Assembly: GCA_039815945.1 (NCBI GenBank)
Contig: JBCBYI010000002.1
Span: 1-44,643, forward strand
DNA length: 44,643 bases
Direction: 5' to 3'
Source: Actinomycetota bacterium
Lineage (GTDB): Bacteria; Actinomycetota; Acidimicrobiia; Acidimicrobiales; Aldehydirespiratoraceae
In this document: positions 3,283 to 35,068 of the stretch, piece by piece
Numbering within the stretch: the first letter of the stretch is position 1
Layout: each line of letters opens with the position of its first letter
Notes under the pieces: generated by a model
The model's database searches: none
Told to the model about the DNA's origin: nothing
What the model saw: the letters and a program-made list of their open reading frames with translations, nothing else
Program-made: the position numbers and the translations under genes

Positions 3283-3969
3283 TCAGCTGTGGTTCACCGC
3301 CGCGCTGAGACGGTCGAGATCCTTCACCGCGATGCGCCGATAGCCGGTCTCGATGAGGCCCTGGGCCTCGAGCCGGCGCAGCGACTGGTTGACGCTCGTG
3401 CGACGGGCACCGAGCAGCCGGGCCAGCGTCTGCTGGCTCACGGCGATGCCCTCGACACCGGCCTCACGCAGCACCCACGACGCGACCTGCATGTCGAGGC
3501 TGCCGGCGAGCAGATCGCTCACCCGGTCCTGCATGGCCGCCATGCGTTGGGCAACCGACACCAGCCAGCGCCGCGCCAGCATCGGGCGCCGTCCGAGCAG
3601 GCCGAACAGGGTGACCGAGTCGATCGACAACACGACGCTGTCCTCGACGGCGCGGGCGGTGGTGGGCTCGCCCGAACGCAGGAAGAGCGGAATGTCGCCG
3701 AACACGCTGCCCTCGCGGAGCAACTGCACGACGACCCGGCGCCCGTTGACCTCACGGGTGAGTTCGACCGTGCCCGACCGCAGGATGTACACCCGGCTGG
3801 GGAGGGCGTGCTGTTCATAGACGTTGGTACCGCCGGCGAACGCGTGCTCGTCGAGGTGGGTCGCCAGCTCTTCGAGGTCGTCGCACGACATCGGTGCGAG
3901 CTCACCTCGTCCGAGGCAGGTGCCGAGCCAGGAGACCAGCTCGGGTGCGGGTGCGGTGGTCGTGCTCAT
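3283..3969 (-). CDS. Crp/Fnr-family transcriptional regulator (cNMP-binding domain plus C-terminal HTH)
   Basis: 228-aa ORF. cNMP-binding-like beta-roll: YILRSGTVELTREVNGRRVVVQLLREGSVFGDIPLF ... ARAVEDSVVLSI. HTH: VSQQTLARLLGARRTSVNQSLRRLEAQGLIE. GGAG lies upstream of the ATG. Confidence 0.85.
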   Translation of the reverse strand: MSTTTAPAPELVSWLGTCLGRGELAPMSCDDLEELATHLDEHAFAGGTNVYEQHALPSRVYILRSGTVELTREVNGRRVVVQLLREGSVFGDIPLFLRSGEPTTARAVEDSVVLSIDSVTLFGLLGRRPMLARRWLVSVAQRMAAMQDRVSDLLAGSLDMQVASWVLREAGVEGIAVSQQTLARLLGARRTSVNQSLRRLEAQGLIETGYRRIAVKDLDRLSAAVNHS

Positions 3970-4018: not shown

Positions 4019-5296
4019 TCACTCGGCCCAGACCGTCGCGTCCGGCTCGAATGCGGCGATCGCGAACCAGAAGGTGTCGAGGTGCTCGACCGGGGTCAGG
4101 GCGGCGCCGGAGCCGTCGACGGCATCGCCGAAGATGTCGAAGGTCACGCCACTGACGGCGTCCTCGAATCCGGCGGCGGTGCGGGTCAGCTCGATCGGCT
4201 CGCCCTCGAGTTCGGCGACGAAGACCGCGGCGGCCCCCTGGTCGTACCCGAGCTCGATCTGTCCGCTGTCGAGCGGGCTCGACGTGCCGGGCTGCACGAC
4301 GGCGACGAGATCGAGGCCATGCGCATCGAAGGCCACGACACCGTCGACGAAGACGGTCTCGAGGGGGACAGCGACCGCCGGTTCGCTGTCGTCGCGGACC
4401 ACGATCACCCGCTCCTTGATGGGGAGGCGGGGGTCGGCGTCACCGTCGAACAAGAACGCGACCCCGTCGGGGTCGTCATAGCCGACGTAGGGATTGCGGC
4501 CGTAGTCACGGGTGAAGCCGGTGTCTCGGGTCAAGACGAGGCCGTCGGGATGGGCGTCTCGGAAGTCCTGCCACGACGTCGTCTGGATCGAGAAGGTCTC
4601 GAGTCGCTCGCCGGTGAGGTGACCGACGACGGCTCGACTGTCGAAGTGGGTCCAGAGCGACTCGGTCTGGCGGTCGTACATGACGAGCGAGGAGTTGAAC
4701 AGCTCACCCGAGGTGCCGAAGTCGAGGATGCGATCGCCGAGTCGGCGGTCGTACGCGAGGGCCGAGTTGCACAGCGGGCAGTACGCAACCGCGACGGGAA
4801 CACTGCCGACGACGTCGTTGACGATCTCGTGCCACGTCATCACCTGCACCGGATAGGCGCGGGCGTCACCCTCGAGTTCGAGCACGATCACCGGCTCGAC
4901 GGCGGTCAGCCAGTCGACCGATGCGGCCGACTGGAAGCGCGGCTCGTCGATCGGCGGGATGCCGTCGGGCGGCGGGCCGCCCGACAGGACCCGATCGAGC
5001 GGGATGAGCGGGGCGGGGAACGCCGGGTCGAGACGATCACCGCGCAGCGCCGACGGCACCCGCTCACGCTCGGTGGAGGCGATCCGTTCCACCTCGATCG
5101 CCGCGGACGAGGCATCGGGGTCGAGGGCTGGCAGGTGCGCGCCGTCGGAGCCGGTCGAGGTCCGGAAGCCGGACGCTCCCGCGTCGGCATCGGTGGCGGG
5201 TGACGCCGCCTCGGTCACCGGATCATCGGTCGAGCCACAGGCGGCGGCCAGGATGGTCAGGGCGATCAGGAGCGCGGGCAGGGTTCGTGTTCGCAC
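4019..5296 (-). CDS. DUF3179 domain-containing lipoprotein
   Basis: 425-aa ORF with a GTG start. Lipoprotein signal: LLIALTILAAAC. DUF3179 hallmarks: DGIPPIDEPRF ... VAVAYCPLCNSALAYDR ... FGTSGELFNSSLVMYDRQTESLW. Confidence 0.8.
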   Translation of the reverse strand: MRTRTLPALLIALTILAAACGSTDDPVTEAASPATDADAGASGFRTSTGSDGAHLPALDPDASSAAIEVERIASTERERVPSALRGDRLDPAFPAPLIPLDRVLSGGPPPDGIPPIDEPRFQSAASVDWLTAVEPVIVLELEGDARAYPVQVMTWHEIVNDVVGSVPVAVAYCPLCNSALAYDRRLGDRILDFGTSGELFNSSLVMYDRQTESLWTHFDSRAVVGHLTGERLETFSIQTTSWQDFRDAHPDGLVLTRDTGFTRDYGRNPYVGYDDPDGVAFLFDGDADPRLPIKERVIVVRDDSEPAVAVPLETVFVDGVVAFDAHGLDLVAVVQPGTSSPLDSGQIELGYDQGAAAVFVAELEGEPIELTRTAAGFEDAVSGVTFDIFGDAVDGSGAALTPVEHLDTFWFAIAAFEPDATVWAE

Positions 5297-5457: not shown

Positions 5458-6423
5458 ATGTCCCTCGCCCACGATCCCGCCGCCGAAGCCGCCGAACTGG
5501 TCGGCCCCGACATCACGGTGCGCGTGCTCGAACCGTCGCCGCCGACCGTGCACGACGGACCGTTCTTCGCCGACGACCCGGCCACCGCGGGCACCAGCGA
5601 CCAACCGGTCGTCACGCCGACGAGTGGCGGTGACCTCACGTGGGACGACCTGCTCGCCGAGCGACCGGAGCTCGCCGACTTCGCCGCCGAGCGGTGGCTG
5701 GGCAACCGGGGACGACTCCCTGCGGTGCCGGCGAACTACCCGGTGGCCCGAGACGCCTTTCACCGACTCGCCTACGGCGTGGTCGCCGAGGCCCGGAAGC
5801 GAGCGAACACGAAGTTCGGTCTTCGGTACACGCGAGGCGGCTTCGGCACGCCCTTCTTCGGCGACGACGAACAGGTGCGGGTCGAGGGCACCCGGCTGAT
5901 CCATCAGCGGGCCGGCGACGCCGACGCGATCGAGATCACCACCCTGCGGGCCGCCGCCGACTTCCTCGGCGTCGAGCCGTGCGCCGACGCCGCCGAGCAC
6001 GACTCGCCCGAGCTCGGCGACCACGACGAGGTGCTCGCCGTCACCGAGGAGACCGGCGTGTTCCTCGGCGCCTGGTTCGGGCTCGCCTGGGCCGTGATCG
6101 AGGAGCTGCGGCTCACGCCCGGCGCCCACGACGTCGAACGCACCCAGCTCTGGCCCGGCCACTTCGACCCGGCGATCGCGATGGGCGACGCCGAGGTCGG
6201 TGGCCGAGCCACCTACGGCATGTCGCCCGGCGATCACGGCCACGACGAGCCGTACCTGTACGTCGGGGCCTGGGGCGAGGTCGACCGCGACGACCCCTAT
6301 TGGAACGAGACCAGCTTCAACGGCGCGGCGATGTCGTTCGCCGACCTCGCTGCGGCCGACGATCCGTTCGTCGCCGCCCTCACGTTCTTTCGCACCGGCT
6401 ACGTGTCACTCAACCCCGACTGA
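5458..6423 (+). CDS. Hypothetical protein (conserved-looking, no family recognised)
   Basis: In-frame ATG at 5458 (MSLAHDPAAEAAEL) within the 5200-6423 ORF. The codon bias is coding-like throughout. I recognise no motif. The upstream part of the ORF is Arg/Pro-rich shadow-type sequence. Confidence 0.6.
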   Translation: MSLAHDPAAEAAELVGPDITVRVLEPSPPTVHDGPFFADDPATAGTSDQPVVTPTSGGDLTWDDLLAERPELADFAAERWLGNRGRLPAVPANYPVARDAFHRLAYGVVAEARKRANTKFGLRYTRGGFGTPFFGDDEQVRVEGTRLIHQRAGDADAIEITTLRAAADFLGVEPCADAAEHDSPELGDHDEVLAVTEETGVFLGAWFGLAWAVIEELRLTPGAHDVERTQLWPGHFDPAIAMGDAEVGGRATYGMSPGDHGHDEPYLYVGAWGEVDRDDPYWNETSFNGAAMSFADLAAADDPFVAALTFFRTGYVSLNPD

Positions 6424-6438
6424 GGCGAGGCCGGTCGC

Positions 6439-8541
6439 TCACGGATCGGGGATCACCCGGATCGACGAGTAACACATCTCGTCGACCGTGCCTTCGTTCC
6501 AGGTGACGTAGCGGGGCTCGTCGAGGAACAGCAGCGAACGATCCCACCAGCACTCGAACCGCACGACGTCGCCTCGCTCGATCCGGATCTCCTCGATCGG
6601 CTCGTAGGCGAGCTGCCACTCGAAGCTCCAGACCGGAATGTCGAGCAGGATGCGCTCGTCGGGCGTGTCGGGGTGCAGCGTCATCCGGTACGCCGCACCG
6701 AACTCGTGCATGTGGCCCAGCACCGAGAAGATCGTGCCGGTGTTGCGAGCCTGGAGATCACAGGAGCTGTGCGCGACCGTGCCGTCGAGGTCGTCGTAGT
6801 CGTCGACGGTGCCACCGCATTGGCGCAACAGCGCGCCGGGGATCTGGGCGGCGCCGGGGCCGTACTTGTCGGCGATCTCCGCGAGCACGGCGTCGCGGTC
6901 GCAGAGCGGGGCCCCGGTGGCGATCTCCTCGGGCGTACACGGCATCTCCGCCGGTGTGAGATAGGCGCTGGCCCGGATCTGGCGCATCCCGGCGGCGATC
7001 TCCTCAGGCGTCGCCTCCTGGAGGACGATCGTCGAGTTGTCGGCCGGGAACTCGTGGTCGAAGTGGTAGTGGATCTGGTTGACGATGAAGTCGCCGGGAG
7101 GCAGATAGATGCCGACGCCCTCTGGGAGGTGCGTGGCCTGCTGGCCCGGCGCCCATCCCATGATCGAGTAGACGCCGTTGGTGCCGAGGTTCGCTGCGCC
7201 GTAGCAGGTGTACCCGGGCTGGTCGTCCTGGGCCGACTTGCGGGCGACCTCGTCGCGGGCGGCGGCCGGTGCCCGGTAGACGATGGCGTGGTGGACGACA
7301 CTCTCCTCGTCGGGTTCAAAGTGCATCCCGGAGATCCAGGTGCCGTCGCCCTCGGGGTCGGGCACCTCGTAGACCTGGCAGCGGTAGTCGTCCTTGCGGG
7401 CCTCGGAACCGACGTAGGCCTCGGCGGCGTTGGTGACGATGTCGCGCCGGATCGGGTTGATCAGCTGATGGGAGCTGACGAGTGCGGTGTCGGGAGCGAC
7501 ATCGAGGCCGCCGCCATCGGCCGCCCACTGGCTGAGGGTCGCGAGCTCGTCGGCGGTCAACGACCAGTCGTTGTGGAAGGCCGGGCTCTCGTCGGAGGGC
7601 AGCCACGGCGGCATGTAGCCGGCGTTGGTGACGAGCGCGATGTCGTCGGCGATCGCCGCCGCATCGGCCGCCGTGTCGAGTGCGAGGGTGCTCCAGCCCG
7701 GGCCCCCGCTGGTGTGGCAGCCAACACAGTTGCCTTCGAGGACCGGCTGGACGAACTGGGCGAACGCGCCACCGACGATCTCGTCGTCGGGGATGTCGGT
7801 CTCCAACGAGCCGGCGCCGTCAGCGCCGAGGTCGATGCGGTCGGCGACCAGATCGAACTCGAGGGTGATCTCGTCGTCGGTGTGGGCGAGACGGGCGATG
7901 TTGATCGGGCCGACGTCGAACGCCGAGCCCAGGATCGTCGTCGTCACCGACGCCAGCAGCCGACCGTCGGTGACGGTCGCGTCGCCCTCGAAGACCACTT
8001 CGGCGGTGGTCTCCTTCACGGTGAGGTCGCCGGTGAGGGTCAGCGACGCCGTCTCGCCGTCGGTGAAGGCCGACGGCAGGCCGTTGATCGAGGTCGTGGC
8101 GAAATTGGCGAACGGGAAGTGGGTGGATTCGAGGAAGTCGTGCCGGAGCCGCTTGTCGCGCAGATTCGAATCCGAGCTGAACATCTCGACGTTGACGACG
8201 ATCTCACCGACCGTCGACGCCGACGGATCGACCGTGTCGAGCACGATGTCGCCGCCGACGACGGTGGTCGTGCCAACGGTCGTCTTCTCGGTGCCGGCGA
8301 GCCGTTCGGTGACGACGTAGCGGACCTCGCTGCCGTTGCCGGGGCTGATCCGGTAGAGCCGCTGCGTCTCGTCGTCGACCTCCTCGACTGCCACGGTTGG
8401 GGCCTCGACGTCGGTCGTTTCCGGATCGCCGTCGGCCAACAGCCAGTCCCACTGGTCCTTGGTGAAGATCAGCAGGGTCCCGACCAGGAGGACTCCGAGG
8501 ATCGCGAACTGACCGACGTGGAGTCGACGCAGGGCTGCCAT
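6439..8541 (-). CDS. Membrane-anchored fusion protein: YceI-like domain, heme-c (CXXCH) module, and PHM/DBH-type copper type II monooxygenase domain
   Basis: 700-aa ORF.
- TM anchor: FAILGVLLVGTLLIF.
- YceI-like segment: HDFLESTHFPFANFATT ... LTLTGDLTVKETTAEVVFEG.
- Heme-c module: FVQPVLEGNCVGCHTSGG ... YMPPW.
- Cu monooxygenase ligand motifs: VVHHAIVY, VNQIHYH, LGHMHEFG, TVDEMCYS. Compare PHM: HH, VLQVHYG, VHTHHLG, SSDEMCNLY. Confidence 0.85.
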   Translation of the reverse strand: MAALRRLHVGQFAILGVLLVGTLLIFTKDQWDWLLADGDPETTDVEAPTVAVEEVDDETQRLYRISPGNGSEVRYVVTERLAGTEKTTVGTTTVVGGDIVLDTVDPSASTVGEIVVNVEMFSSDSNLRDKRLRHDFLESTHFPFANFATTSINGLPSAFTDGETASLTLTGDLTVKETTAEVVFEGDATVTDGRLLASVTTTILGSAFDVGPINIARLAHTDDEITLEFDLVADRIDLGADGAGSLETDIPDDEIVGGAFAQFVQPVLEGNCVGCHTSGGPGWSTLALDTAADAAAIADDIALVTNAGYMPPWLPSDESPAFHNDWSLTADELATLSQWAADGGGLDVAPDTALVSSHQLINPIRRDIVTNAAEAYVGSEARKDDYRCQVYEVPDPEGDGTWISGMHFEPDEESVVHHAIVYRAPAAARDEVARKSAQDDQPGYTCYGAANLGTNGVYSIMGWAPGQQATHLPEGVGIYLPPGDFIVNQIHYHFDHEFPADNSTIVLQEATPEEIAAGMRQIRASAYLTPAEMPCTPEEIATGAPLCDRDAVLAEIADKYGPGAAQIPGALLRQCGGTVDDYDDLDGTVAHSSCDLQARNTGTIFSVLGHMHEFGAAYRMTLHPDTPDERILLDIPVWSFEWQLAYEPIEEIRIERGDVVRFECWWDRSLLFLDEPRYVTWNEGTVDEMCYSSIRVIPDP
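7714..7728 (-). other. CXXCH heme-c attachment motif (C272-V-G-C-H276) in the 700-aa fusion protein
   Basis: The reverse complement of gtggcagccaacaca is tgtgttggctgccac, which encodes C-V-G-C-H. Confidence 0.7.
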
Positions 8542-8587
8542 GGGTCCAGTATCGGTCAGCCGACGCGAGACGTGAAACCACCGACGC

Positions 8588-9739
8588 TCAGGGACCGGCG
8601 AGCGACTCCCGCAGGCCGAAGGCCAAGATCAGCTCGCGGAGGTCCGCGGGCCGTACCGCCAGATCGTCGAAGGCCGCCAGATCGATCGCCGCCGAGGCGG
8701 TGTCGCCGAGGAAGTTGTGCACGAACGCCCGGTACACGAGCGCCTCGGGGTGGATGGGATCGATGGCGAGGGCCCGGTCGAGGAAGGTGAGTCCGATCTC
8801 GGCGGGGGCGAGGGCGTCGGGGGTGGCCGAACGGGCGAGCAGCCACCCCTGGCCGGCGAGGGCATCGGGATCCTCCGGCACGGAGGCGAGCATCCACTCC
8901 CCCAGCTGGATGCCGGCGAAGGGCTCGCCGTCGGCGGCCAGCGCCTCTGCGGCCAGCAGCACGTCGTCGACGGTGAGATCGGTCTCGGAGAACGGCGGCG
9001 GGTCGTCGACGAGGGCGACCGGCTCGACCCGAGCGAGCGCATCGGCCCACGCGATCTCGGTCAGGCGGTCGCGCAGACCCTGCTGGACGACGAGCTGTTC
9101 GATGAAGGGCGGCGCGTCGAGCTCGTCGAACGCGTCGAGGTGGCCCTTGGCGGCTTCGACATCGCCGACGTCGAGGGCGATGGCGGTGGCGAACACGCGG
9201 GCGTCGGCGTACTCGGGATCGATCGCGACGGCGTCCTCGACGAGGGGGCGGGCCTGGCCGACCTCCCCCTGGAGGCGAAGGAACCAGCCCTTGTAGGCGA
9301 GCGCCTCGGTGTTCGACGGCGAGAGTTCGAGCACCTCGTCGTAGACGTCGATGGCGGCGTCGAGGTCGCCCTCACCGAGGAGCTGCTGCGCCTCGAGCAG
9401 CAGCTCGCGGGTCGTGACCCGGATGTCGCCGGTGATGGTGTCGTTGAGCGTGCGGCTGCCGGAGAACTGCGCGACGAGGATGCCGGCGAGGGTCGCGACG
9501 ACGGCGATCCCGGCCAGCCACAGCCAGGCCCGGCCCTGGGTCTCGACCGGCGTGATCGGCGCCGGCTTCTCGCCGGCGTCGATCGCCCGCAGCACGCGTG
9601 CAGCACGGGTCGTGTAGTCGGCCTTCAGCGACTCGTAGTCGGCGGCGTCGAGATCACCGGCCGCGTACTCGGCCTCGAGGTCGTCGAGGGACCCGAGCAG
9701 GAAGTCGCGCTCTTCGATGAGCGCGGGATCGACACTCAT
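8588..9739 (-). CDS. ccmI: CcmI-like TPR protein (putative apocytochrome c chaperone of System I)
   Basis: ATG at 9737-9739 (MSVDPALIEERDFL), overlapping the ccmH stop by 4 nt. The protein has a cytoplasmic coiled N-terminus, one TM helix (AWLWLAGIAVVATLAGILVAQF), then TPR-like repeats (AIDVYDEVLELSPSNTEALAYKGWFLRLQGE ... ). The assignment rests on its position directly after ccmH and on its architecture. Confidence 0.6.
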   Translation of the reverse strand: MSVDPALIEERDFLLGSLDDLEAEYAAGDLDAADYESLKADYTTRAARVLRAIDAGEKPAPITPVETQGRAWLWLAGIAVVATLAGILVAQFSGSRTLNDTITGDIRVTTRELLLEAQQLLGEGDLDAAIDVYDEVLELSPSNTEALAYKGWFLRLQGEVGQARPLVEDAVAIDPEYADARVFATAIALDVGDVEAAKGHLDAFDELDAPPFIEQLVVQQGLRDRLTEIAWADALARVEPVALVDDPPPFSETDLTVDDVLLAAEALAADGEPFAGIQLGEWMLASVPEDPDALAGQGWLLARSATPDALAPAEIGLTFLDRALAIDPIHPEALVYRAFVHNFLGDTASAAIDLAAFDDLAVRPADLRELILAFGLRESLAGP

Positions 9740-10194
9740 CCCCGATCGGCCAGCGCCTGTTCGACCAGTGCGTGGTCCTCGTCGGTGGCTTCCAGCTCCG
9801 CTTCGAGCTTCCAGCGCCGGAAGACGAGTCCGAGGCCGGTGACGGCGACGGCGCCACCGACGACCGGCAGGATCCACACCAGAGCGGTGACCCCCTCGGC
9901 CGACGGCGTGTAGTCGACGTCCTCACCGAAGGTGCTGACGAGCTGCTCGCGAATGAAGTCGTCGGACTGGCCCTGGTCGACCCAGACCCGGATCTCTCGC
10001 CGGATGTTGCGGGCGACCACGACATCGCTCTCGGCCACCGATTGACCCTGACAGACCGGGCAGGCGAAATCCTGCGCCAGCGAGTAGGCCCGGTCGGCAT
10101 TGCTCAGCGGAGGGCCCTCGTCGACGGTGGCGAACACGAGCATCGACAAGCCGACCGCGGCGACCAGCAACCAGGAGGCGAGGCGCCGGGTCAC
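9736..10194 (-). CDS. ccmH: Cytochrome c-type biogenesis protein CcmH (thiol-redox component)
   Basis: GTG at 10192-10194 (VTRRLASWLLVAAVGLSML), overlapping the ccmG stop by 4 nt. It has the CcmH signature FACPVCQGQSVAESD (compare LRCxxCQnQ), followed by ARNIRREIRVWVDQGQSDDFI and a C-terminal TM helix. Confidence 0.85.
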   Translation of the reverse strand: MTRRLASWLLVAAVGLSMLVFATVDEGPPLSNADRAYSLAQDFACPVCQGQSVAESDVVVARNIRREIRVWVDQGQSDDFIREQLVSTFGEDVDYTPSAEGVTALVWILPVVGGAVAVTGLGLVFRRWKLEAELEATDEDHALVEQALADRG

Positions 10195-10778
10195 GAGCCG
10201 ACCTCGGACTCCGCATCGAGCTGCGCCTGCAGGAGCAGATCCTCGATCTGGTTGTCGAGATCGGCCTTGGTGATGCCGCCGATCAGCTTCGCGGCGACCA
10301 CACCGCTCGGGGCGACGAGGTAGCTCTCGGGCACGGCGGTGACGCCGTAGTCGACGGCGATCGATCCGGTGTCCCGGGTGATGACGGGCCATTCGCCGCC
10401 GTTCTCGAGGAAGAAGTCGCGCACGTTGGCCGACGAGTCGTCGAAGGCGACCGACACCACGAGCGCGTCACCGGTCGCCGCTCGTTCCTCGGCGAACGCG
10501 ACGAGTTCGGGGTGTTCGACGATGCACGGCACACAGGTGGTCGAGAAGAAGTTCACCACCACCCACTGGCCTCGATGGTCGTCGATGTCGAACCACTGCC
10601 CGTCGAGGTCCTCGCCTTCGATCAGCGGGGCGAGCCGACCGACCGCAGTGGAGTTGGCTGCTCGCTCCGAGGCTGGCTCGCCGGTCGCGAGCAGCACGAT
10701 CAGCAAGGCGAACGCCACGGCGATCGGCAACACGATCCAGACCGCGGTGCGGCTCGAGCGAGTGGCCGCCTCGGTCAC
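10191..10778 (-). CDS. ccmG: Thiol:disulfide oxidoreductase CcmG/DsbE (TlpA/ResA-like thioredoxin fold)
   Basis: 195-aa ORF with a GTG start that overlaps the ccmF stop by 4 nt. It has an N-terminal TM anchor and the thioredoxin active site VVVNFFSTTCVPCIVEHPEL. Confidence 0.85.
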   Translation of the reverse strand: MTEAATRSSRTAVWIVLPIAVAFALLIVLLATGEPASERAANSTAVGRLAPLIEGEDLDGQWFDIDDHRGQWVVVNFFSTTCVPCIVEHPELVAFAEERAATGDALVVSVAFDDSSANVRDFFLENGGEWPVITRDTGSIAVDYGVTAVPESYLVAPSGVVAAKLIGGITKADLDNQIEDLLLQAQLDAESEVGS

Positions 10779-12805
10779 GACGGCACCTCGGCGGGCTCAG
10801 TGCTCGGTCGCTCGTCAGCCGGCGAGGCGGCGAGCACGGCATCGTCGACGGGGCCGTCGACGGGTTCGGGGATCGGCGCGGAGGTGGGGGCGATCGGATT
10901 GCGGCGGCGCCCGGGCACCACCGCGAGTGCGGTGCCCACCGCCATGACGATGCCGCCGATCCACAGCCACACGATCAGTGGCTGCACGGTCGCCCGCAAC
11001 ACGACCGCGTCGTCGGCGTCCTCGGGGAACGACAGCACCGACAGCGCGATGTCGTCCTGGAAGGTCGACCGCACGCTCGGCGTCCCGATGGTCTGCCCGG
11101 CGAAGGGGTAGGTCGCGATCGCCGGCGCGTAGACCTGGCCGCCGTCGACCCGAATGTCGGCCTTGCGCTCGACCCGGTTGTCGTACTCGACGACCCGGGA
11201 TCCTTCGTAGGTCAGCGTATGGCCGGAGATGACCGCACTCTCCCCGGGCTCGAGCGTGAACTCGCCCTGGCGGACGTAGGCGTTGCTGGCGGCGAAGGCC
11301 ACCGCGATCAGCACCACGCCGAGGTGCACGATCATGCCGCCGTTGGTGCGACCGACCAGCCCCCGCCAGCCCTGGCGGCGGGTGGCGAGCACGACCTGAC
11401 GCAGCGCCGCGCCACCGGCGAAGCCGCCGAGACCGAAGGCCAGCATCGGGGCCCAACCCCGGGCGCCCACGACCGCGGCGAACACCATCGATCCGACGCC
11501 GAGCCACGCCGGCCAGATCAGGCGGTCGGAGAGCACCTCGCCGCTCGCCTTGCGCCACGGGAGGATCGGGGCGACCGCCATCAAGAACAGCAGGGTGAAT
11601 CCGATCGGCATGGTCATCTGATCGAAGTACGGATTGCCGACCGAAATCGTGCGCCCGTCGACCGCCTCGACGATCAGCGGGAAGATCGTGCCGAGCAAGA
11701 CGACGAAGGCGAAGCCGGCGAAGAGCACGTTGTTGGCCAAGAACGCGCCCTCGCGCGAGATCGGCGAATCGATGCGACCCGGCGCCCGCAGCTCGTCGCC
11801 GCGCCACGCGATCAGGCCGAGCGACACCACGACGATCAAGGCGAAGAACGACAGGAACCACGGACCGATGCCCGACTCGACGAAGGCGTGGACCGACTGC
11901 AGCACGCCCGAACGGGTGATGAAGGTGCCGAGGATGGTCAACGCGAAGGTCGACACCACCAGCGAGAGGTTCCAGACCCGCAGCATGCCGCGACGCTCCT
12001 GGACCATCACCGAGTGGATGAAGGCGGTGCCGGTCAGCCACGGTAGGAACGAGGCGTTCTCGACCGGATCCCAGGCCCAGTAGCCACCCCAGCCGAGGGT
12101 CTCGTAGCTCCACCAGGCACCGAGCACGATGCCGAAGGTGAGATAGCCCCAGGCGAGCACAGTCCAGCGGCGGGTGGCGACCAGCCAGCCCTCGCCGACT
12201 CGACCCGTCACCAGGGCGGCGATCGCGAAGGCGAACGGCACGGTGAAGCCGACGTAGCCCAGATAGAGGATCGGCGGATGGAACGCCATCAGGATGTGGT
12301 TTTGGAGCAGCGGGTTCGGGCCGGGGCCGTCGTAGCCCGGCGGCGGGTCGAACGAGGTGAACGGCGCCGAGGGGCCGACCATCAACAAGAAGAAGAACGC
12401 ACACACGACGAACAGCGTGAGCATCACCCACTGCATCATCGGGTCGTCGCCCTCGTCGCGGAACTTCACCACGACGGCCACGACATAGCCGCACAGCACA
12501 AGGACCCACAGCAGGATCGAACCCTCGAGCGCCGACCAGAGCGTCGCGAAGTTGAACAGCGCCGGGGTCTGCGACGACCCGTGGTCGGCGACGAACTGGA
12601 CCGTGAAGTCGCGGGTGATCAGCGCCCGCTCCATGATCACGACCGACGCGACCGAGGCGAGGGCCATCAGGCCGACGAGCAGCTTGATGTCGGCGAACCA
12701 GCGCGGCCGGTAGCCGAGGATGCCGAGCAGCACGACGATGACGCCGGCCAGGGCACAGGCGGCGCCGAGCGCGACCGAGGCCGAACCGAGGGCGACGTTG
12801 CTCAC
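10775..12805 (-). CDS. ccmF: Cytochrome c heme lyase subunit CcmF
   Basis: 676-aa polytopic membrane ORF. It carries the WWD motif WGGYWAWDPVENASFLPW and has the size and topology typical of CcmF. The GTG start overlaps the ccmE stop by 4 nt. Confidence 0.95.
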   Translation of the reverse strand: MSNVALGSASVALGAACALAGVIVVLLGILGYRPRWFADIKLLVGLMALASVASVVIMERALITRDFTVQFVADHGSSQTPALFNFATLWSALEGSILLWVLVLCGYVVAVVVKFRDEGDDPMMQWVMLTLFVVCAFFFLLMVGPSAPFTSFDPPPGYDGPGPNPLLQNHILMAFHPPILYLGYVGFTVPFAFAIAALVTGRVGEGWLVATRRWTVLAWGYLTFGIVLGAWWSYETLGWGGYWAWDPVENASFLPWLTGTAFIHSVMVQERRGMLRVWNLSLVVSTFALTILGTFITRSGVLQSVHAFVESGIGPWFLSFFALIVVVSLGLIAWRGDELRAPGRIDSPISREGAFLANNVLFAGFAFVVLLGTIFPLIVEAVDGRTISVGNPYFDQMTMPIGFTLLFLMAVAPILPWRKASGEVLSDRLIWPAWLGVGSMVFAAVVGARGWAPMLAFGLGGFAGGAALRQVVLATRRQGWRGLVGRTNGGMIVHLGVVLIAVAFAASNAYVRQGEFTLEPGESAVISGHTLTYEGSRVVEYDNRVERKADIRVDGGQVYAPAIATYPFAGQTIGTPSVRSTFQDDIALSVLSFPEDADDAVVLRATVQPLIVWLWIGGIVMAVGTALAVVPGRRRNPIAPTSAPIPEPVDGPVDDAVLAASPADERPSTEPAEVPS

Positions 12806-13356
12806 GCGCAGGCCTCGGCAACGACCACTTGCTCAGCGCTCTCGGCAAGACGATCGTCGTAGCCTTCTTCGTTGATGTAGTCGTTGTCGTGCTTCACCCG
12901 CATGCGATCCGATGCGAAGTACCAGCCGTCGTCGGCCAGGCCCTCGAAGCCGTCGACGCCTGGATCGGCCTGGACCCAGGCGCCGTCGAGCACGACCGGG
13001 ACGTCGGGCTCGAACAGCTCGGCGGGATCACCGAAGTGGACGATGTCGGCCGACACGCCGCCGTGGGTGACGGAGAAGGCGACGATCGGGAGATCGTCCT
13101 GAAAGCCCGTGACGATCGAGCAGCCGATCGGCAGGCCCTGGAGGGTGAAGCGTTCGTCGCCGAGATCGTCGCGGCGCTCGACCGCTTCGTCGGCGTTGTA
13201 GAAGAACAGTGACCCGGACGCGAGATTCCACACGAGTCCGACGACGGCACCGGCCATCACCAAGGCGATGAGCGCCGGCACGACCTTGCGGCGCCGCGAC
13301 CGGGTCGGGCGGGGTTCTTGGGGGGCGAGGGAGTCGTCGACGACGGCGTCGCTCAC
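12802..13356 (-). CDS. ccmE: Heme chaperone CcmE
   Basis: GTG at 13354-13356 (VSDAVVDD), overlapping the ccmD stop by 4 nt. Membrane anchor: VVPALIALVMAGAVVGLVW. OB-fold-like core, and the canonical heme-binding H-x3-Y motif RVKHDNDY (E. coli has KHDENY). Confidence 0.85.
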   Translation of the reverse strand: MSDAVVDDSLAPQEPRPTRSRRRKVVPALIALVMAGAVVGLVWNLASGSLFFYNADEAVERRDDLGDERFTLQGLPIGCSIVTGFQDDLPIVAFSVTHGGVSADIVHFGDPAELFEPDVPVVLDGAWVQADPGVDGFEGLADDGWYFASDRMRVKHDNDYINEEGYDDRLAESAEQVVVAEACA

Positions 13357-13505
13357 GAGTCGTCCTCCGCGGTCATCCAGCGGCGACGGTCGGCCGGAAC
13401 GCGAGCGGCGAGGGCCCGGCCGCGAACCGACAGGCGAAAGGCGTAGACGCCGAGGGCGCCGAGGGTGATGCCCCAGCCGGCGAGCAGGTAGCCGAGATGG
13501 GTCAC
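13353..13505 (-). CDS. ccmD: Heme exporter small subunit CcmD
   Basis: 50 codons from the GTG at 13503-13505: VTHLGYLLAGWGITLGALGVYAFRLSVRGRALAARVPADRRRWMTAEDDS. It has a single TM helix and sits between ccmC and ccmE, overlapping both neighbours by 4 nt. The call rests on size, topology and position. Confidence 0.55.
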   Translation of the reverse strand: MTHLGYLLAGWGITLGALGVYAFRLSVRGRALAARVPADRRRWMTAEDDS

Positions 13506-14257
13506 GACGCACCTCCCGAGGTCGTGGCTTCGGCCCGACGGGCGGCGATCGCCTCGTCGAGGTCGCCGTCGCGGAGCTCGCGCTCCAGCCAGGCGATGCG
13601 GAAGCGGTGGATCATCGACCAGGTGTAGAAGACACCCCACACGACGATCCCCAGGAACATCGTGAAGAGGGTCCAGTCCTCGAGCTTGCCGTCGGTGATC
13701 GACGACTGCTGGTGGAGGGTGCGGTCGGCCCACCACTCGACCGAGCGGTTGATGATCGGGATGTTGATCGCGGCGATGATGCCGACGACGGCGGCGCGGG
13801 TCGCCACCGCGGACTCGTCGCCGCCCATCGATCGAACGGCGAGATAGCCGACCATCATCACGAAGAGGATCAGGGTGGTGACGAGGCGGACGTCGCCCCA
13901 CTCCCAGTAGGTGTTCCAGGTGGGACGACCCCAGATCGAGCCGGTGACGAGGGTGAGCCCGCAGAAGATCACGCCGATCTCGGCCGAGCTCTGCGCGACG
14001 ATGTCCCACCAGACCGAGCGCTTCCAGAGCCACATGATCGAACCGACCGCGGTGACCGAGAAGGCGACGTAGGTGAGGATCGCCGAGGGCACGTGGACGA
14101 AGATCATCCGGACGGAGTCCTGCATCAGGTCGTCCTCGGGCGCGACGAAGAAGCCGAGCAGGATCATCGCCGCCACGCCGGCGAGAACGGCGAAGCCGAG
14201 CAGGCGGGTGGTGCGGGATCCGGTGTGGGCGGGAAGATCGAGTTGGGGGTGAGTCAT
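13502..14257 (-). CDS. ccmC: Heme exporter protein CcmC
   Basis: 251-aa membrane ORF with a Trp-rich motif, GSIWGRPTWNTYWEWGDVRLVTTLILF, of the CcmC/CcmF/CcsA heme-handling family. It overlaps the ccmB stop by 4 nt. Confidence 0.92.
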   Translation of the reverse strand: MTHPQLDLPAHTGSRTTRLLGFAVLAGVAAMILLGFFVAPEDDLMQDSVRMIFVHVPSAILTYVAFSVTAVGSIMWLWKRSVWWDIVAQSSAEIGVIFCGLTLVTGSIWGRPTWNTYWEWGDVRLVTTLILFVMMVGYLAVRSMGGDESAVATRAAVVGIIAAINIPIINRSVEWWADRTLHQQSSITDGKLEDWTLFTMFLGIVVWGVFYTWSMIHRFRIAWLERELRDGDLDEAIAARRAEATTSGGAS

Positions 14258-14922
14258 GTCTCCTCCAGGAGCACGCCGTAGGACAATGCTCCCAGGACCA
14301 CGTTGATGACGCCGAACCCGGCGAGCAGACCGAGCCAGGACCAGCCGTCGACGGCCACCGATCCGAGGGCGTCGTCGAACGCCCGAGTCGCACCGATGAG
14401 CACCGGGGCCAGAACCGGGAGCAGCAAGATCGGCAGGACCGTCTCACGGGCTCTCACTCCGGCCACGAGCGCTCCGAGCAGGGTACCGGCCCCCGCGATA
14501 CCAACGGTGGCGACCAGGCAGGTCGCGAGCACGAGCGCCCAGGCCTCGACGTCGGCGCCGTAGAGGACGACCACGCCGGCCACCAACACGACCTCGACGG
14601 CGAGCAACTGCACTGCCACCGCGAGGGTCTTGCCGAGAAACACCGCCGCGGGCTCGATGCCGGCGAGCAGCAGGGCGCGGCGGGCGCCGTCGGTGGTCTC
14701 GATCGAGGTCGAACGCTGGACGGCGAGGGTCGACACGAACATCACGGTGATCCAGAACAGGCCCGAGGTCGCCTGCAACAGCACGGGGCGGTTGGCGTCG
14801 AGCGCGAACCCGAAGAGGACGAGCACCAGACCGGCGAACGGCACGACCTGGCTGAAGGTGACACGCGAGCGCCACTCGATGCGCAGGTCCTTGCGGGCGA
14901 CGAGCCACGCATCACGCAGCAT
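14254..14922 (-). CDS. ccmB: Heme exporter permease CcmB
   Basis: 222-aa ORF with six predicted hydrophobic segments. The N-terminus, MLRDAWLVARKDLRIEWRSR, is typical of CcmB. It overlaps ccmA by 11 nt. Confidence 0.88.
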   Translation of the reverse strand: MLRDAWLVARKDLRIEWRSRVTFSQVVPFAGLVLVLFGFALDANRPVLLQATSGLFWITVMFVSTLAVQRSTSIETTDGARRALLLAGIEPAAVFLGKTLAVAVQLLAVEVVLVAGVVVLYGADVEAWALVLATCLVATVGIAGAGTLLGALVAGVRARETVLPILLLPVLAPVLIGATRAFDDALGSVAVDGWSWLGLLAGFGVINVVLGALSYGVLLEET

Positions 14923-15616
14923 CGTCGTCTCCCGGCTGCGGGGTGTCCGGGCGGTCTCCGCCGTCGCCGCCGCGGCGGTCGGCGGTGATGGTCCCGCCCG
15001 CGACAGTGAGATGGCGGGTGGCGAGATCGAGCGTGCGATCGAGTTCGTGCGAGGCGAGCATCACGGTGGCCCCTGCGGCAGCGGCGTCGAGGATCACCTG
15101 ATCGATGAGATCGCGGCCGCTCTGGTCGAGCCCGGAGTGGGGCTCGTCGAGGAGCCAGAGCCGGGGACGACGCACGACGACGGCGGCGAGGGCGGTGCGG
15201 CGCCGCTGCCCGGCGGACAGGTCGCGCACGGCGACGTCGCGGATGCGGTCCGCCACCCCGAGTCGATCGAGCGCTGCGGGCACGGCGGCGACATCGACAC
15301 GCGAGGCCTCGGCCCAGAAGCGCAGGTTCTCCTCGACGGTGAGGTCGTCGTAGAGCGCGGTGTCGTGGCCGAGCAGACCGACCGAGCGACGCACCGCAGC
15401 CCGGTCGGTGGTCAGGTCGTGGCCGAGCACCTCGGCGCGCCCCGACTCGATGCGCAGGAGTCCGGCGCAGACCCGCAGGAGGGTCGACTTGCCCGCACCG
15501 TTGGGTCCCTGGACGAGCACGATCTCGCCTTCGCCGACCTCCAGATCCGCGCCAGCGAGGGCCGGGAACCGGCCGAGGAGCGCGACGACGCTCTGGAGAG
15601 AAACGATGGACACCAC
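14912..15616 (-). CDS. ccmA: Heme exporter ABC ATPase CcmA
   Basis: Walker A GPNGAGKSTLLR, ABC signature LSAGQRRRTALA, and Walker B LWLLDEPHSGLD. The 5' end has tandem GTG codons at 15616 and 15613. The second lies exactly 6 nt downstream of a TAGCGT hexamer, so 15613 is an alternative leaderless start. Confidence 0.9.
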   Translation of the reverse strand: MVSIVSLQSVVALLGRFPALAGADLEVGEGEIVLVQGPNGAGKSTLLRVCAGLLRIESGRAEVLGHDLTTDRAAVRRSVGLLGHDTALYDDLTVEENLRFWAEASRVDVAAVPAALDRLGVADRIRDVAVRDLSAGQRRRTALAAVVVRRPRLWLLDEPHSGLDQSGRDLIDQVILDAAAAGATVMLASHELDRTLDLATRHLTVAGGTITADRRGGDGGDRPDTPQPGDDDAA

Positions 15617-15619
15617 GAA

Positions 15620-15629
15620 ACGCTAGCGT
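15620..15629. promoter_or_regulatory. Perfect 10-bp palindrome ACGCTAGCGT that presents a TANNNT hexamer (TAGCGT) on both strands (candidate back-to-back -10 elements for ccmA and the sortase gene)
   Basis: It lies in the 49-bp ccmA/sortase divergent spacer. On the minus strand, TAGCGT (15625-15620) sits 6 nt upstream of the GTG at 15613. On the plus strand, TAGCGT (15624-15629) sits 36 nt upstream of the sortase GTG at 15666. Confidence 0.35.
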
Positions 15630-15665
15630 CGCGCCGGGAACGGTCCGGCTCAGAAGCGGACGGGT

Positions 15666-16967
15666 GTGACCGATGATGCAATCATGACCGACGTGCTCGA
15701 TCCCCCTTCCGAGGCACTCGACGCCGCCGACCGACCCGCCGCCGAGGTCCCACCGGCGCCGCGGCTCGCGCGAGTGCTCGGCGCCGCCGGTCGCACGATG
15801 ATCATCGCCGGCATCGTCGTGTTGCTCTTCGTCGTCTTCCAGCTCTGGGGCACCGACATCCAAGAGGCACGCGCCCAGAACGGTCTCGAGTCCGAACTCG
15901 ACGAGCGGTTCGAGACCATCGCCACCGAGTTCGACCCCGCGCTGTTCGCCCGTCCTGTCGCCGAGCCGGTCGATCCCGCCGACGACCCCGTCCTCGCCGA
16001 CGAGCCGGACGGCGAGGTTCCCGCCGCGACCGCCGACCCGGTGCCGACCGCGACCGTTCCCGAGGTCGACGACGAGCTGCTCGCCCTGCTGTTCCCCGAC
16101 GACGGTGATGCGTTGGCGAAGATCGAGATCCCCACGATCGAGGTCGACAAGATCGTCGTGCGGGGTGTCGCCGTCGCCGACCTGCGCAAGGGACCCGGCC
16201 ATTACGACCAGACCTCGCTCCCCGGCAACCCGGGCAACAGCAGCATCGCCGGCCACCGGACGACCTACGGCTCGCCCTTCAACCGCATCGACGAGCTCCA
16301 GCCCGGCGCCGAGATCACCGTGACGAGTGTCCAGGGCGAGTTCACCTACCGCGTCATGGATCCGACCCTCGCCTACGCCGACGACCTCGACCGAGTGCTC
16401 GAAGTCGGCGGCGGGCACATCATCGTCGACCCTGGCGCGACCTGGGTCCTCGGCGACTTCGGCGACGATCGCCTCACGCTGACCGCCTGCCACCCGAAGC
16501 TCTCGTCGCGCCAACGCATCATCGTCACCGCCGAGCTGGTCGACGACGCGGTGGCGCTGCCCGAGTGGGCGGTGGCCGCCGAGGCCGAGCGTCAGGCTGC
16601 GATCCGCTTGGGTGCCGACGGCACGACCGACACCGTGCCCCCGACGACGATCGCCGACCCCACCCAGACCGTCACCGAGAGCCCCCCGCCGATCGACGAC
16701 GAGTCCGACGACGTCGAGGTCGCCGCGGTGACGTTCGAGGAGCCGGATCTCGACGAGGGTCTCAGCGGCGAACGGGACGCCATCCCACCCGCGATCGCCT
16801 GGCTGCTCGCCGCGACGGCGCTGTGGTTCGCCGGGGGCTGGATCGGTCGTCGCCTCGACGCCGACCGGCTGCAGCGGCTCGGACTCCGGTTCGCCGGCTT
16901 CGTCCCCGCCGCCGTGTGCCTGTGGTTCGCGTTCGAGCTCGTCGACCGGGCCCTGCCGGCCGGCTGA
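15666..16967 (+). CDS. srtE: Class E sortase (LAxTG-specific transpeptidase) with extended N- and C-terminal regions
   Basis: 433-aa ORF starting at GTG 15666, with an alternative ATG at 15684.
- N-terminal TM helix: MIIAGIVVLLFVVFQLW.
- Sortase core: LRKGPGHYDQTSLPGNPGNSSIAGHRTTYGSPFNRIDEL ... LTLTACHPKLSSRQRIIVTAEL. This contains the His, the TLxTC Cys and the Arg.
- Two further C-terminal TM helices. Confidence 0.85.
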   Translation: MTDDAIMTDVLDPPSEALDAADRPAAEVPPAPRLARVLGAAGRTMIIAGIVVLLFVVFQLWGTDIQEARAQNGLESELDERFETIATEFDPALFARPVAEPVDPADDPVLADEPDGEVPAATADPVPTATVPEVDDELLALLFPDDGDALAKIEIPTIEVDKIVVRGVAVADLRKGPGHYDQTSLPGNPGNSSIAGHRTTYGSPFNRIDELQPGAEITVTSVQGEFTYRVMDPTLAYADDLDRVLEVGGGHIIVDPGATWVLGDFGDDRLTLTACHPKLSSRQRIIVTAELVDDAVALPEWAVAAEAERQAAIRLGADGTTDTVPPTTIADPTQTVTESPPPIDDESDDVEVAAVTFEEPDLDEGLSGERDAIPPAIAWLLAATALWFAGGWIGRRLDADRLQRLGLRFAGFVPAAVCLWFAFELVDRALPAG

Positions 16968-34967: not shown

Positions 34968-35068
34968 TGATGACTCCGGCCCACGGTCACATGGCCGTGT
35001 GGTCCAAATCCCCTGATTTCGCGACACAACCCGTCAGTCGGCGTCCGCAAGCGCCGAAGGGACCCCCG

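Follow-up and report, generated by a model that had tools for sequence, protein, structure and literature searches.

The window analyzed in this study is a stretch of 44,643 nucleotides (44.6 kb; contig JBCBYI010000002.1 of assembly GCA_039815945.1, positions 1 to 44,643) from an uncultured marine-type actinobacterium. On its minus strand lies a gene whose 700-amino-acid product is predicted to join a transmembrane anchor, a YceI-like domain, a c-type cytochrome module, and a copper monooxygenase core of the kind found in peptidylglycine alpha-hydroxylating monooxygenase (PHM) and dopamine beta-hydroxylase (DBH). The open reading frame (ORF) runs from an ATG start to a stop codon at 6439-6441. 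Its guanine plus cytosine (GC) fraction is 0.91 at third codon positions versus 0.46 at second positions, in a window of 69% GC, which fits a coding frame at 6439-8541. The gene and its parts are as follows.

6439-8541, minus strand: whole gene, transmembrane anchor - YceI - cytochrome c - PHM/DBH-type copper monooxygenase (ORF list and translation)
8452-8517, minus strand: N-terminal transmembrane anchor, residues 9-30 (helix in the AlphaFold2 model; hydrophobic stretch FAILGVLLVGTLLIFT)
7843-8355, minus strand: YceI-like beta-barrel domain, residues 63-233 (Pfam PF04264)
7492-7776, minus strand: mono-heme, class-I-like cytochrome c module, residues 256-350 (CXXCH and invariant M310)
7012-7446, minus strand: domain of the electron-transfer copper (CuH), residues 366-510 (Pfam PF01082; ligands H417, H418, and H491)
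6772-7011, minus strand: start of the second copper domain with a helical, Cys-rich insertion, residues 511-590 (secondary structure of the model)
6442-6771, minus strand: domain of the catalytic copper (CuM), residues 591-700 (Pfam PF03712; ligands H610, H612, and M689)

An exact look-up of the window protein gave no record, and an NCBIfam scan returned only a YceI match, which was weak and sub-threshold. The initial annotation, made from the DNA letters, had read the gene as this four-part fusion. Profile and fold searches recovered the YceI domain, the cytochrome c, and both copper domains, bearing that architecture out. At the N-terminus, Arg5-Arg6 precede the transmembrane helix and an acidic stretch follows it. 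By the positive-inside rule, this arrangement predicts an N-in topology with the remainder of the protein extracytoplasmic.

An AlphaFold2 model was built on an alignment of 69 orthologs (55-87% identity) and reached a mean pLDDT of 81.9 and a pTM of 0.74. Its secondary structure begins with a helix at residues 9-30, followed by a beta-rich domain (60-235) and a helical segment (265-341) that corresponds to the cytochrome. Two beta-sandwich domains come next and include an inserted helical stretch at about 537-582. Foldseek searches of the PDB gave human DBH as the best match (4zel, E 1.4e-11), ahead of PHM and then YceI. About 30 PHM entries were matched with E 4e-11 to 5e-9 and target-normalized template modeling (TM) scores of 0.51-0.64 over about 350-365 columns, at an identity to PHM and DBH of 13-15%. 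YceI structures (1wub, 7bwl, 1y0g, 3hpe, 5ixh, and 2x32) were matched with E of about 1e-8 and target-normalized TM scores of 0.68-0.78. These fold matches included the X158 domain of Saccharophagus degradans (2x32/2x34).

Pfam PF04264 matched the YceI region over its whole profile (1-150 of 150), with E 1.1e-18 and 68.5 bits against a cut-off of 23.7. Sequence searches of the PDB with this part returned Escherichia coli YceI (1y0g), BcnA (5ixh), TT1927b (1wub), and PA0423 (7bwl), with E 5e-6 to 2e-4. The profile and fold matches together indicate a bona fide YceI-domain protein with a predicted eight-stranded, lipocalin-like barrel. When the YceI and cytochrome part was searched alone, mostly fragments and free-standing YceI proteins were found, and no fusion to another catalytic domain. 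This search neither supports nor excludes a general electron module made of YceI and cytochrome c.

The heme-binding motif of the cytochrome module is C272-V-G-C275-H276, at nucleotides 7714-7728 as first annotated, and M310 within G-Y-M-P-P-W is the candidate sixth heme ligand. C272, C275, H276, and M310 were invariant in 69/69 orthologs, with M310 in a G-x-M-P-P-W motif. Among wider relatives, CXXCH was kept in 208/209 and M310 in 209/209. A chance CXXCH was rejected as an explanation, as the motif is invariant across the family. Profile evidence for the module itself was modest: Pfam PF13442 (Cytochrome_CBB3) matched residues 269-315 with E 0.0027 and 18.4 bits against a cut-off of 27, precomputed PF13442 matches were present in several relatives, and a wider-family profile gave weak matches to c-type cytochromes in the PDB (E 3e-4 to 0.05). 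Further features of a c-type cytochrome were found in its predicted location on the export side of the membrane and in an adjacent maturation operon. The protein is also the sole CXXCH protein among the 35 called ORFs of the window, just 44.6 kb of the genome; the initial annotation had singled it out as the only visible client of that operon.

In the copper part, PF01082 (the N-terminal Cu2_monooxygen domain) matched residues 380-493 with E 8e-7 and 29.7 bits against a cut-off of 30. PF03712 (Cu2_monoox_C) matched residues 603-692 at profile positions 46-131, with E 0.017 and 15.0 bits against a cut-off of 23. Precomputed matches to both families were present in many relatives. A single-sequence search of the PDB with the copper part returned nothing relevant, and PHM and DBH were reached only by a wider-family profile. 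This profile, made of 38 diverse members, matched PHM with E 2.5e-13 and DBH with E 1.2e-9. It aligned VHH to H107/H108 of PHM, QvHY (VLQVHY in PHM) to H172, and DEMC to SSDEMC (M314). The third CuH histidine lies about 65-75 residues after the His-His pair, as expected. The H610-M-H612 motif was placed from the Pfam C-domain match at 603-692 and from spacing rather than from a printed residue alignment.

Conservation of these ligands was strict. H417, H491, H610, H612, and M689 were invariant in the 69 orthologs, and H418 was kept in 68/69. For the wider relatives, the CuH ligands were kept in 239/240 (H417), 240/240 (H418), and 236/240 (H491), and the CuM ligands in 246/251 (H610 and H612) and 242/251 (M689). 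Heme and copper ligands were therefore 96-100% conserved in 209-251 relatives, down to about 30% identity. The CXXCH, the distal Met, and the six copper ligands are thus conserved in orthologs and distant relatives, and none of the refuting conditions named with the initial annotation was borne out. The copper part also has eight Cys that are invariant in the 69 orthologs. C388 and C446 lie in the CuH domain, C535, C547, and C575 in the insertion segment, C594 just beyond it at the start of the CuM domain, and C664 and C690 in the CuM domain. The insertion helices (about 537-582) fall outside the profile alignment to PHM, and a hidden Markov model (HMM) of the insertion segment matched only some members of the wider family.

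The substrate-binding residues of PHM are not retained. Where PHM has DEMCNLY, the family consensus is DEMClav and the window protein has DEMCYSS, replacing N316 and Y318. PHM also uses R240 to bind the peptide carboxylate; the window protein has Leu rather than Arg two residues before H610. The peptide-carboxylate residues beside CuM that mark PHM proper were not found, and assignment as a PHM ortholog was rejected because the substrate residues are not kept. The loss of the peptide-binding residues N316 and Y318 argues against a glycine-extended peptide as the substrate. Since the fold and ligands fit, the Pfam cut-offs are narrowly missed, and a family profile reaches PHM and DBH, we place the protein, on sequence and model, within the type II copper monooxygenase superfamily (PF01082 plus PF03712) as one of its divergent members.

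Searching 5.8 billion proteins gave 256 full-length homologs. The named ones were all from metagenome-assembled genomes (MAGs) of Acidimicrobiia/Acidimicrobiales and were labeled "YceI family protein". Counting one genome per species, the gene was present in 117 species, all Acidimicrobiia except for a few evidently mislabeled bins. The copper part alone (residues 350-700) was searched without a word filter against 1.84 billion representatives of clusters at 50% identity. A total of 3,476 clusters were matched at E <= 1e-3, of which 1,453 also passed E <= 1e-10. Architectures were parsed for the best 150 and 113 further matches with HMMs cut from the ortholog alignment. The cytochrome c module was present in 201 of the 230 relatives with complete copper domains, a count partly biased by a second search profile that contained the heme module; the unbiased search, made with the copper part only, still had the module in about two thirds of its 150 best matches, counting fragments. 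In every parsed architecture having the module, it stood directly N-terminal of the CuH domain. YceI was present as well in only a minority, 25 of the 230. The core of cytochrome c and copper monooxygenase thus makes up a very large bacterial family, neither rare nor a singleton.

Short forms of about 430-550 amino acids were found in MAGs of Chloroflexota, a phylum that also has YceI-bearing forms, and in cultured Myxococcota (Sorangium, Polyangium, Pyxidicoccus, and Persicimonas), with "monooxygenase" as their sole annotation there. Like the window protein, the short forms of Myxococcota and Chloroflexota carry the cytochrome c, CuH, and CuM core with all ligands (family profile E of about 1e-135 to 1e-150). 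They differ in lacking YceI and in having a probable lipoprotein-type signal (LLxxxC consensus) instead of a transmembrane anchor. In a crude neighbor-joining tree of the copper domains, YceI forms fell into several groups interleaved with YceI-less forms, so YceI behaves as a modular accessory. A coherent clade of about 375-430 amino acids has both copper domains and no cytochrome c module. This heme-less clade must rely on another electron donor and so offers a ready-made control for the idea of a heme relay. Its members include P0199, P0203, P0206, P0209, P0217, P0220, P0225, P0230, P0231, P0237, P0242, and P0245. All sampled members of the family are bacterial.

In databases, members of the family are labeled "YceI family protein" or "monooxygenase", and a single JGI name reads "YceI/cytochrome c551/c552". 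A cluster look-up of ten short-form representatives gave no informative names. No description or characterized member of a bacterial, heme-fused PHM/DBH-type enzyme was found in open-access papers and preprints, in agreement with the initial annotation, which knew of no characterized enzyme with this architecture. Since databases label the pieces and no description of the fused enzyme was found, the parts are known; their combination and what it implies are not.

The gene is immediately preceded, on its own strand, by a complete System I cytochrome c maturation (ccm) operon with the following features.

8588-15616, minus strand: System I cytochrome c maturation operon (Pfam matches)
14912-15616, minus strand: ccmA (Pfam)
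14254-14922, minus strand: ccmB (Pfam)
13502-14257, minus strand: ccmC (Pfam)
12802-13512, minus strand: ccmD/E (CcmE motif H-D-N-D-Y, the H-x-x-x-Y heme motif)
10775-12805, minus strand: ccmF (Pfam)
10191-10778, minus strand: ccmG-like redoxin gene (Pfam)
9736-10194, minus strand: ccmH (motif FACPVCQ, with CPVC)
8588 to about 9760, minus strand: TPR/CcmI-like gene, upstream neighbor of the fusion gene
8542-8587, minus strand: spacer of 46 bp between the ccmI-like gene and the fusion gene (sequence read)

An ORF of 148 amino acids at 9654-10100 on the minus strand was considered as ccmH and rejected as a spurious frame, its translation being rich in Arg, Ser, and Pro. With the real ccmH at 9736-10194, the listed TPR ORF of 429 amino acids (8588-9877) probably starts near 9760. 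The same gene order was found at locus L081 (78% identical), in called genes with Pfam labels. The 46-bp distance to the ccmI-like gene on the same strand is as originally described. Simple scans of 5800-10200 found no promoter-like or terminator-like site, which agrees with the earlier placement of the gene at the tail of the operon. The arrangement recurs: in 39 of the 76 species loci with enough upstream sequence, the gene is directly downstream of a ccmI-like gene on the same strand, with a gap of 2-104 bp in 38 of these 39. System II (ResBC/CcsBA) is the maturation system usually attributed to Actinobacteria. The presence of System I in a high-GC genome of the Acidimicrobiia type suggests that its distribution in Acidimicrobiia may deserve a census.

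Compared with PHM and DBH, the protein shares the two beta-sandwich domains, the His-His...His set of CuH and the His-x-His...Met set of CuM at near-PHM spacing, the DEMC motif with its disulfide Cys, and, by its predicted topology, an oxidizing extracytoplasmic or lumenal location. With DBH it also shares an extra N-terminal beta-rich domain ahead of the catalytic core. It differs in the predicted covalent heme c module directly before the CuH domain, in a YceI barrel where DBH has DOMON, and in the helical, Cys-rich insertion of its second domain. Residues N316 and Y318 are not conserved, and identity is as low as given above. Moreover, it is bacterial and anchored by an N-terminal helix, and its electron donor is presumably heme rather than ascorbate.

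Cbp2D and Cbp2E of Cellvibrio japonicus and Saccharophagus degradans combine CBM2, X158, and c-type cytochrome X183/X132 domains and have been proposed as electron donors of lytic polysaccharide monooxygenases (LPMOs) (PMC8981238). Their YceI-like X158 domain binds ubiquinone-8 and accompanies c-type cytochrome domains, and one of these cytochrome domains reduces an LPMO in vitro (PMC8981238). Common to both systems are an extracytoplasmic YceI-like domain and a mono-heme c-type cytochrome that would serve a copper monooxygenase. The LPMO, however, is a separate protein of unrelated fold with a mononuclear histidine brace, whereas the copper enzyme described here is fused in one chain. Pfam searches found no carbohydrate-binding module (CBM2 or other) and no FN3 match in the window protein, and PDB searches found no sequence match between its cytochrome module and CjX183. 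The protein would therefore be a functional analog of Cbp2D/E, not a member of that family. A further parallel exists in E. coli, where YceI pairs with the cytochrome b561 homolog YceJ, and in animals, where cytochrome b561 supplies DBH and PHM via ascorbate. In these systems, too, a cytochrome recurs beside a barrel of the YceI or DOMON type, and PHM/DBH-type enzymes ultimately draw their electrons from a cytochrome. Their cytochromes, in contrast, are membrane-integral, b-type, and separately encoded, with ascorbate as the shuttle, whereas the window protein has a fused heme of the soluble c type.

On this evidence, the product of the gene is probably a non-coupled binuclear copper monooxygenase of the PHM/DBH type that is anchored in the membrane, lies outside the cytoplasm, has its own heme electron input, and carries YceI as a polyisoprenoid-binding accessory. 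The c-type heme, attached covalently outside the membrane by the Ccm proteins encoded upstream, would take single electrons from the respiratory chain and pass them to the adjacent CuH. CuM, once reduced by CuH, would activate O2 and hydroxylate a C-H bond in the substrate. Heme would stand in place of the ascorbate that is regenerated through cytochrome b561 for the animal enzymes. The YceI barrel would bind a polyisoprenoid lipid, for which bound or exchangeable menaquinone/menaquinol is favored, and the domain order of anchor, YceI, heme c, CuH, and CuM would trace an electron path from the membrane quinone pool. An ascorbate-independent input through the heme is well motivated: the heme module is nearly always present, next to the CuH domain on its N-terminal side, and its ligands are strictly conserved. 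The quinone role of YceI is favored by the domain order and by the Cbp2D/E precedent. The data show the identity of the domains, the conserved ligands, the predicted topology, the linkage to ccm, and the size of the family; that heme and copper are bound, which way electrons run, what the YceI barrel holds, and which reaction follows are inferred from these. More tentatively, the protein may represent the YceI-bearing branch of a large, unrecognized class of heme-copper monooxygenases, linked by menaquinone to the quinone pool without a soluble reductant, co-transcribed with the Ccm genes in many Acidimicrobiia, and acting on an envelope or environmental substrate.

Several observations weigh against a heme-fed monooxygenase supplied from the quinone pool. 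Scored by itself, the window protein stays under the curated Pfam cut-offs for the cytochrome domain as well as for the two copper domains. The ccm linkage drawn by the initial annotation is real in the species given above, but 37 of the 76 loci have no ccm gene within 10 kb; with about half of the orthologs away from ccm, the link is lineage-specific rather than obligatory. No conserved neighbor indicates a substrate, as contexts differ among Acidimicrobiia clades, Myxococcota, and Chloroflexota. Quinol entry as read from the domain order is only suggestive. Finally, the YceI-less relatives and the heme-less clade show, as far as sequence comparison goes, that neither module is strictly needed for the copper core, and the electron donor must then differ among members.

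The nearest competing explanation keeps the heme-fed enzyme and changes the role of YceI. The barrel would deliver the substrate, taking a hydrophobic compound out of the membrane (a polyprenol, menaquinone, carotenoid, or other lipid) and offering it to CuM for hydroxylation, and a separate respiratory cytochrome c would feed the heme. YceI proteins resemble lipocalins and bind polyisoprenoids as well as other hydrophobic ligands (matches include TT1927b, BcnA, HP1286, and PA0423), and the protein would be tethered at the membrane surface. The YceI-less relatives evidently obtain electrons without YceI, making it unnecessary for electron supply. Against this, close catalytic domains occur without YceI, in the crude tree the fused forms do not make up a single clade, the YceI domain sits at the chain end opposite the catalytic CuM domain, and no conserved lipid-biosynthesis neighbors were found in the contexts examined. 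The modularity of YceI makes it less likely that YceI defines the substrate; equally, it implies that YceI is not essential for electron supply. By analogy with Cbp2D/E, a role in electron entry or quinone binding seems at least as likely as a substrate role. The initial suggestion that YceI presents a hydrophobic substrate therefore stands as to the domain, and its proposed role is nearly as likely as the quinone role, weakened by this modularity. As a whole, we regard the substrate-delivery explanation as a possibility to be taken seriously, though a rather doubtful one.

Less likely still is an envelope redox or copper-handling protein that is no hydroxylase, either an oxidase reducing O2 or H2O2 and draining cytochrome c or a copper-binding factor for cytochrome or oxidase biogenesis. 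Such a role would fit a gene that closes a biogenesis operon in 39/76 species, the lack of identifiable substrate-related neighbors, and the unconserved PHM substrate-binding residues; it is the copper-binding factor that would account for the location behind ccm. The complete and strictly conserved sets of three His and of two His plus Met, including the Met typical of an O2-activating CuM, speak for a monooxygenase instead. Half of the orthologs are away from ccm, as are three short-form or Chloroflexota contexts (the short forms of Persicimonas and Sorangium and one YceI form of Chloroflexota, each among unrelated neighbors), and System I ccm operons work elsewhere without such a gene. An ordinary, ascorbate-dependent PHM/DBH ortholog acquired from eukaryotes for peptide amidation or amine hydroxylation, with an incidental CXXCH, is very improbable. 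Such an origin would explain the fold and the copper ligands, which match PHM and DBH. It is hard to reconcile with a CXXCH and distal Met invariant over hundreds of relatives in a helical, cytochrome-like module, with the replacement of N316 and Y318 at only 13-15% identity, and with a large family that is purely bacterial as sampled. Nor are bacteria known to produce ascorbate for such a use.

If the preferred reading of a heme-fed monooxygenase is correct, it would bear on questions about the animal enzymes. DBH-type copper hydroxylation makes noradrenaline in animals, and both the electron supply of PHM and DBH (ascorbate and cytochrome b561) and the long-range transfer from CuH to CuM are still debated. 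We know of no detailed work on PHM or DBH that was done on other than animal proteins. A heme wired to CuH would be a natural system for timing the inter-site transfer by photo- or chemical reduction of the heme, and it would represent an ascorbate-independent solution to electron supply. Acidimicrobiia, Chloroflexota, and Myxococcota would also become places to look for new C-H hydroxylation chemistry outside the cytoplasm. Finally, the protein would be a second independent case, after Cbp2D/E with LPMOs, in which YceI and cytochrome c serve a copper oxygenase, a hint that YceI domains may generally take part in redox chains of the cell envelope.

Outside the ccm-linked loci, the largest unlinked group is an Aldehydirespirator-like clade, where the gene lies among RCC1-repeat proteins and near a molybdopterin oxidoreductase and acyl-CoA dehydrogenases. 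Large secreted RCC1-repeat proteins were encoded on both sides of the gene, at 6095-9950 and 12326-15802 in locus L049 and at 9357-9956 and 12334-14184 in locus L082. A membrane-associated molybdopterin oxidoreductase (Oxidored_molyb) was found 1-7 kb upstream in about 22 loci of this clade. The surroundings may be an envelope redox neighborhood. As a substrate clue, the RCC1 and molybdopterin neighbors were set aside as clade-level synteny only. In Persicimonas caeni (L083), an AhpC/TSA-redoxin gene at 6371-6907 lies directly upstream of the short form on the same strand. This redoxin, which echoes the CcmG-like redoxin of the window, might keep the CXXCH or disulfide Cys in the right state.

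Other genes of the window were also noted. A convergent gene at 5458-6423 on the plus strand encodes a hypothetical protein of 321 amino acids without a Pfam match and ends 15 bp from the stop codon of the fusion gene. It was rejected as a substrate clue, being adjacent in only 23/75 loci, some of them without ccm linkage. The gene at 4019-5296 on the minus strand, whose product matches DUF3179 (E 4e-92) and contains a CPLC motif, adjoins a Crp-family regulator at 3283-3969 on the minus strand; locus L081 has two DUF3179 paralogs at the corresponding position. A sortase gene at 15666-16967 on the plus strand adjoins the ccm operon. At 34970-43660 on the plus strand, an ORF of 2,896 amino acids carries seven DUF11 and five SdrD_B repeats with other Ig-like or prealbumin-like domains, and its product is probably a giant cell-surface adhesin.

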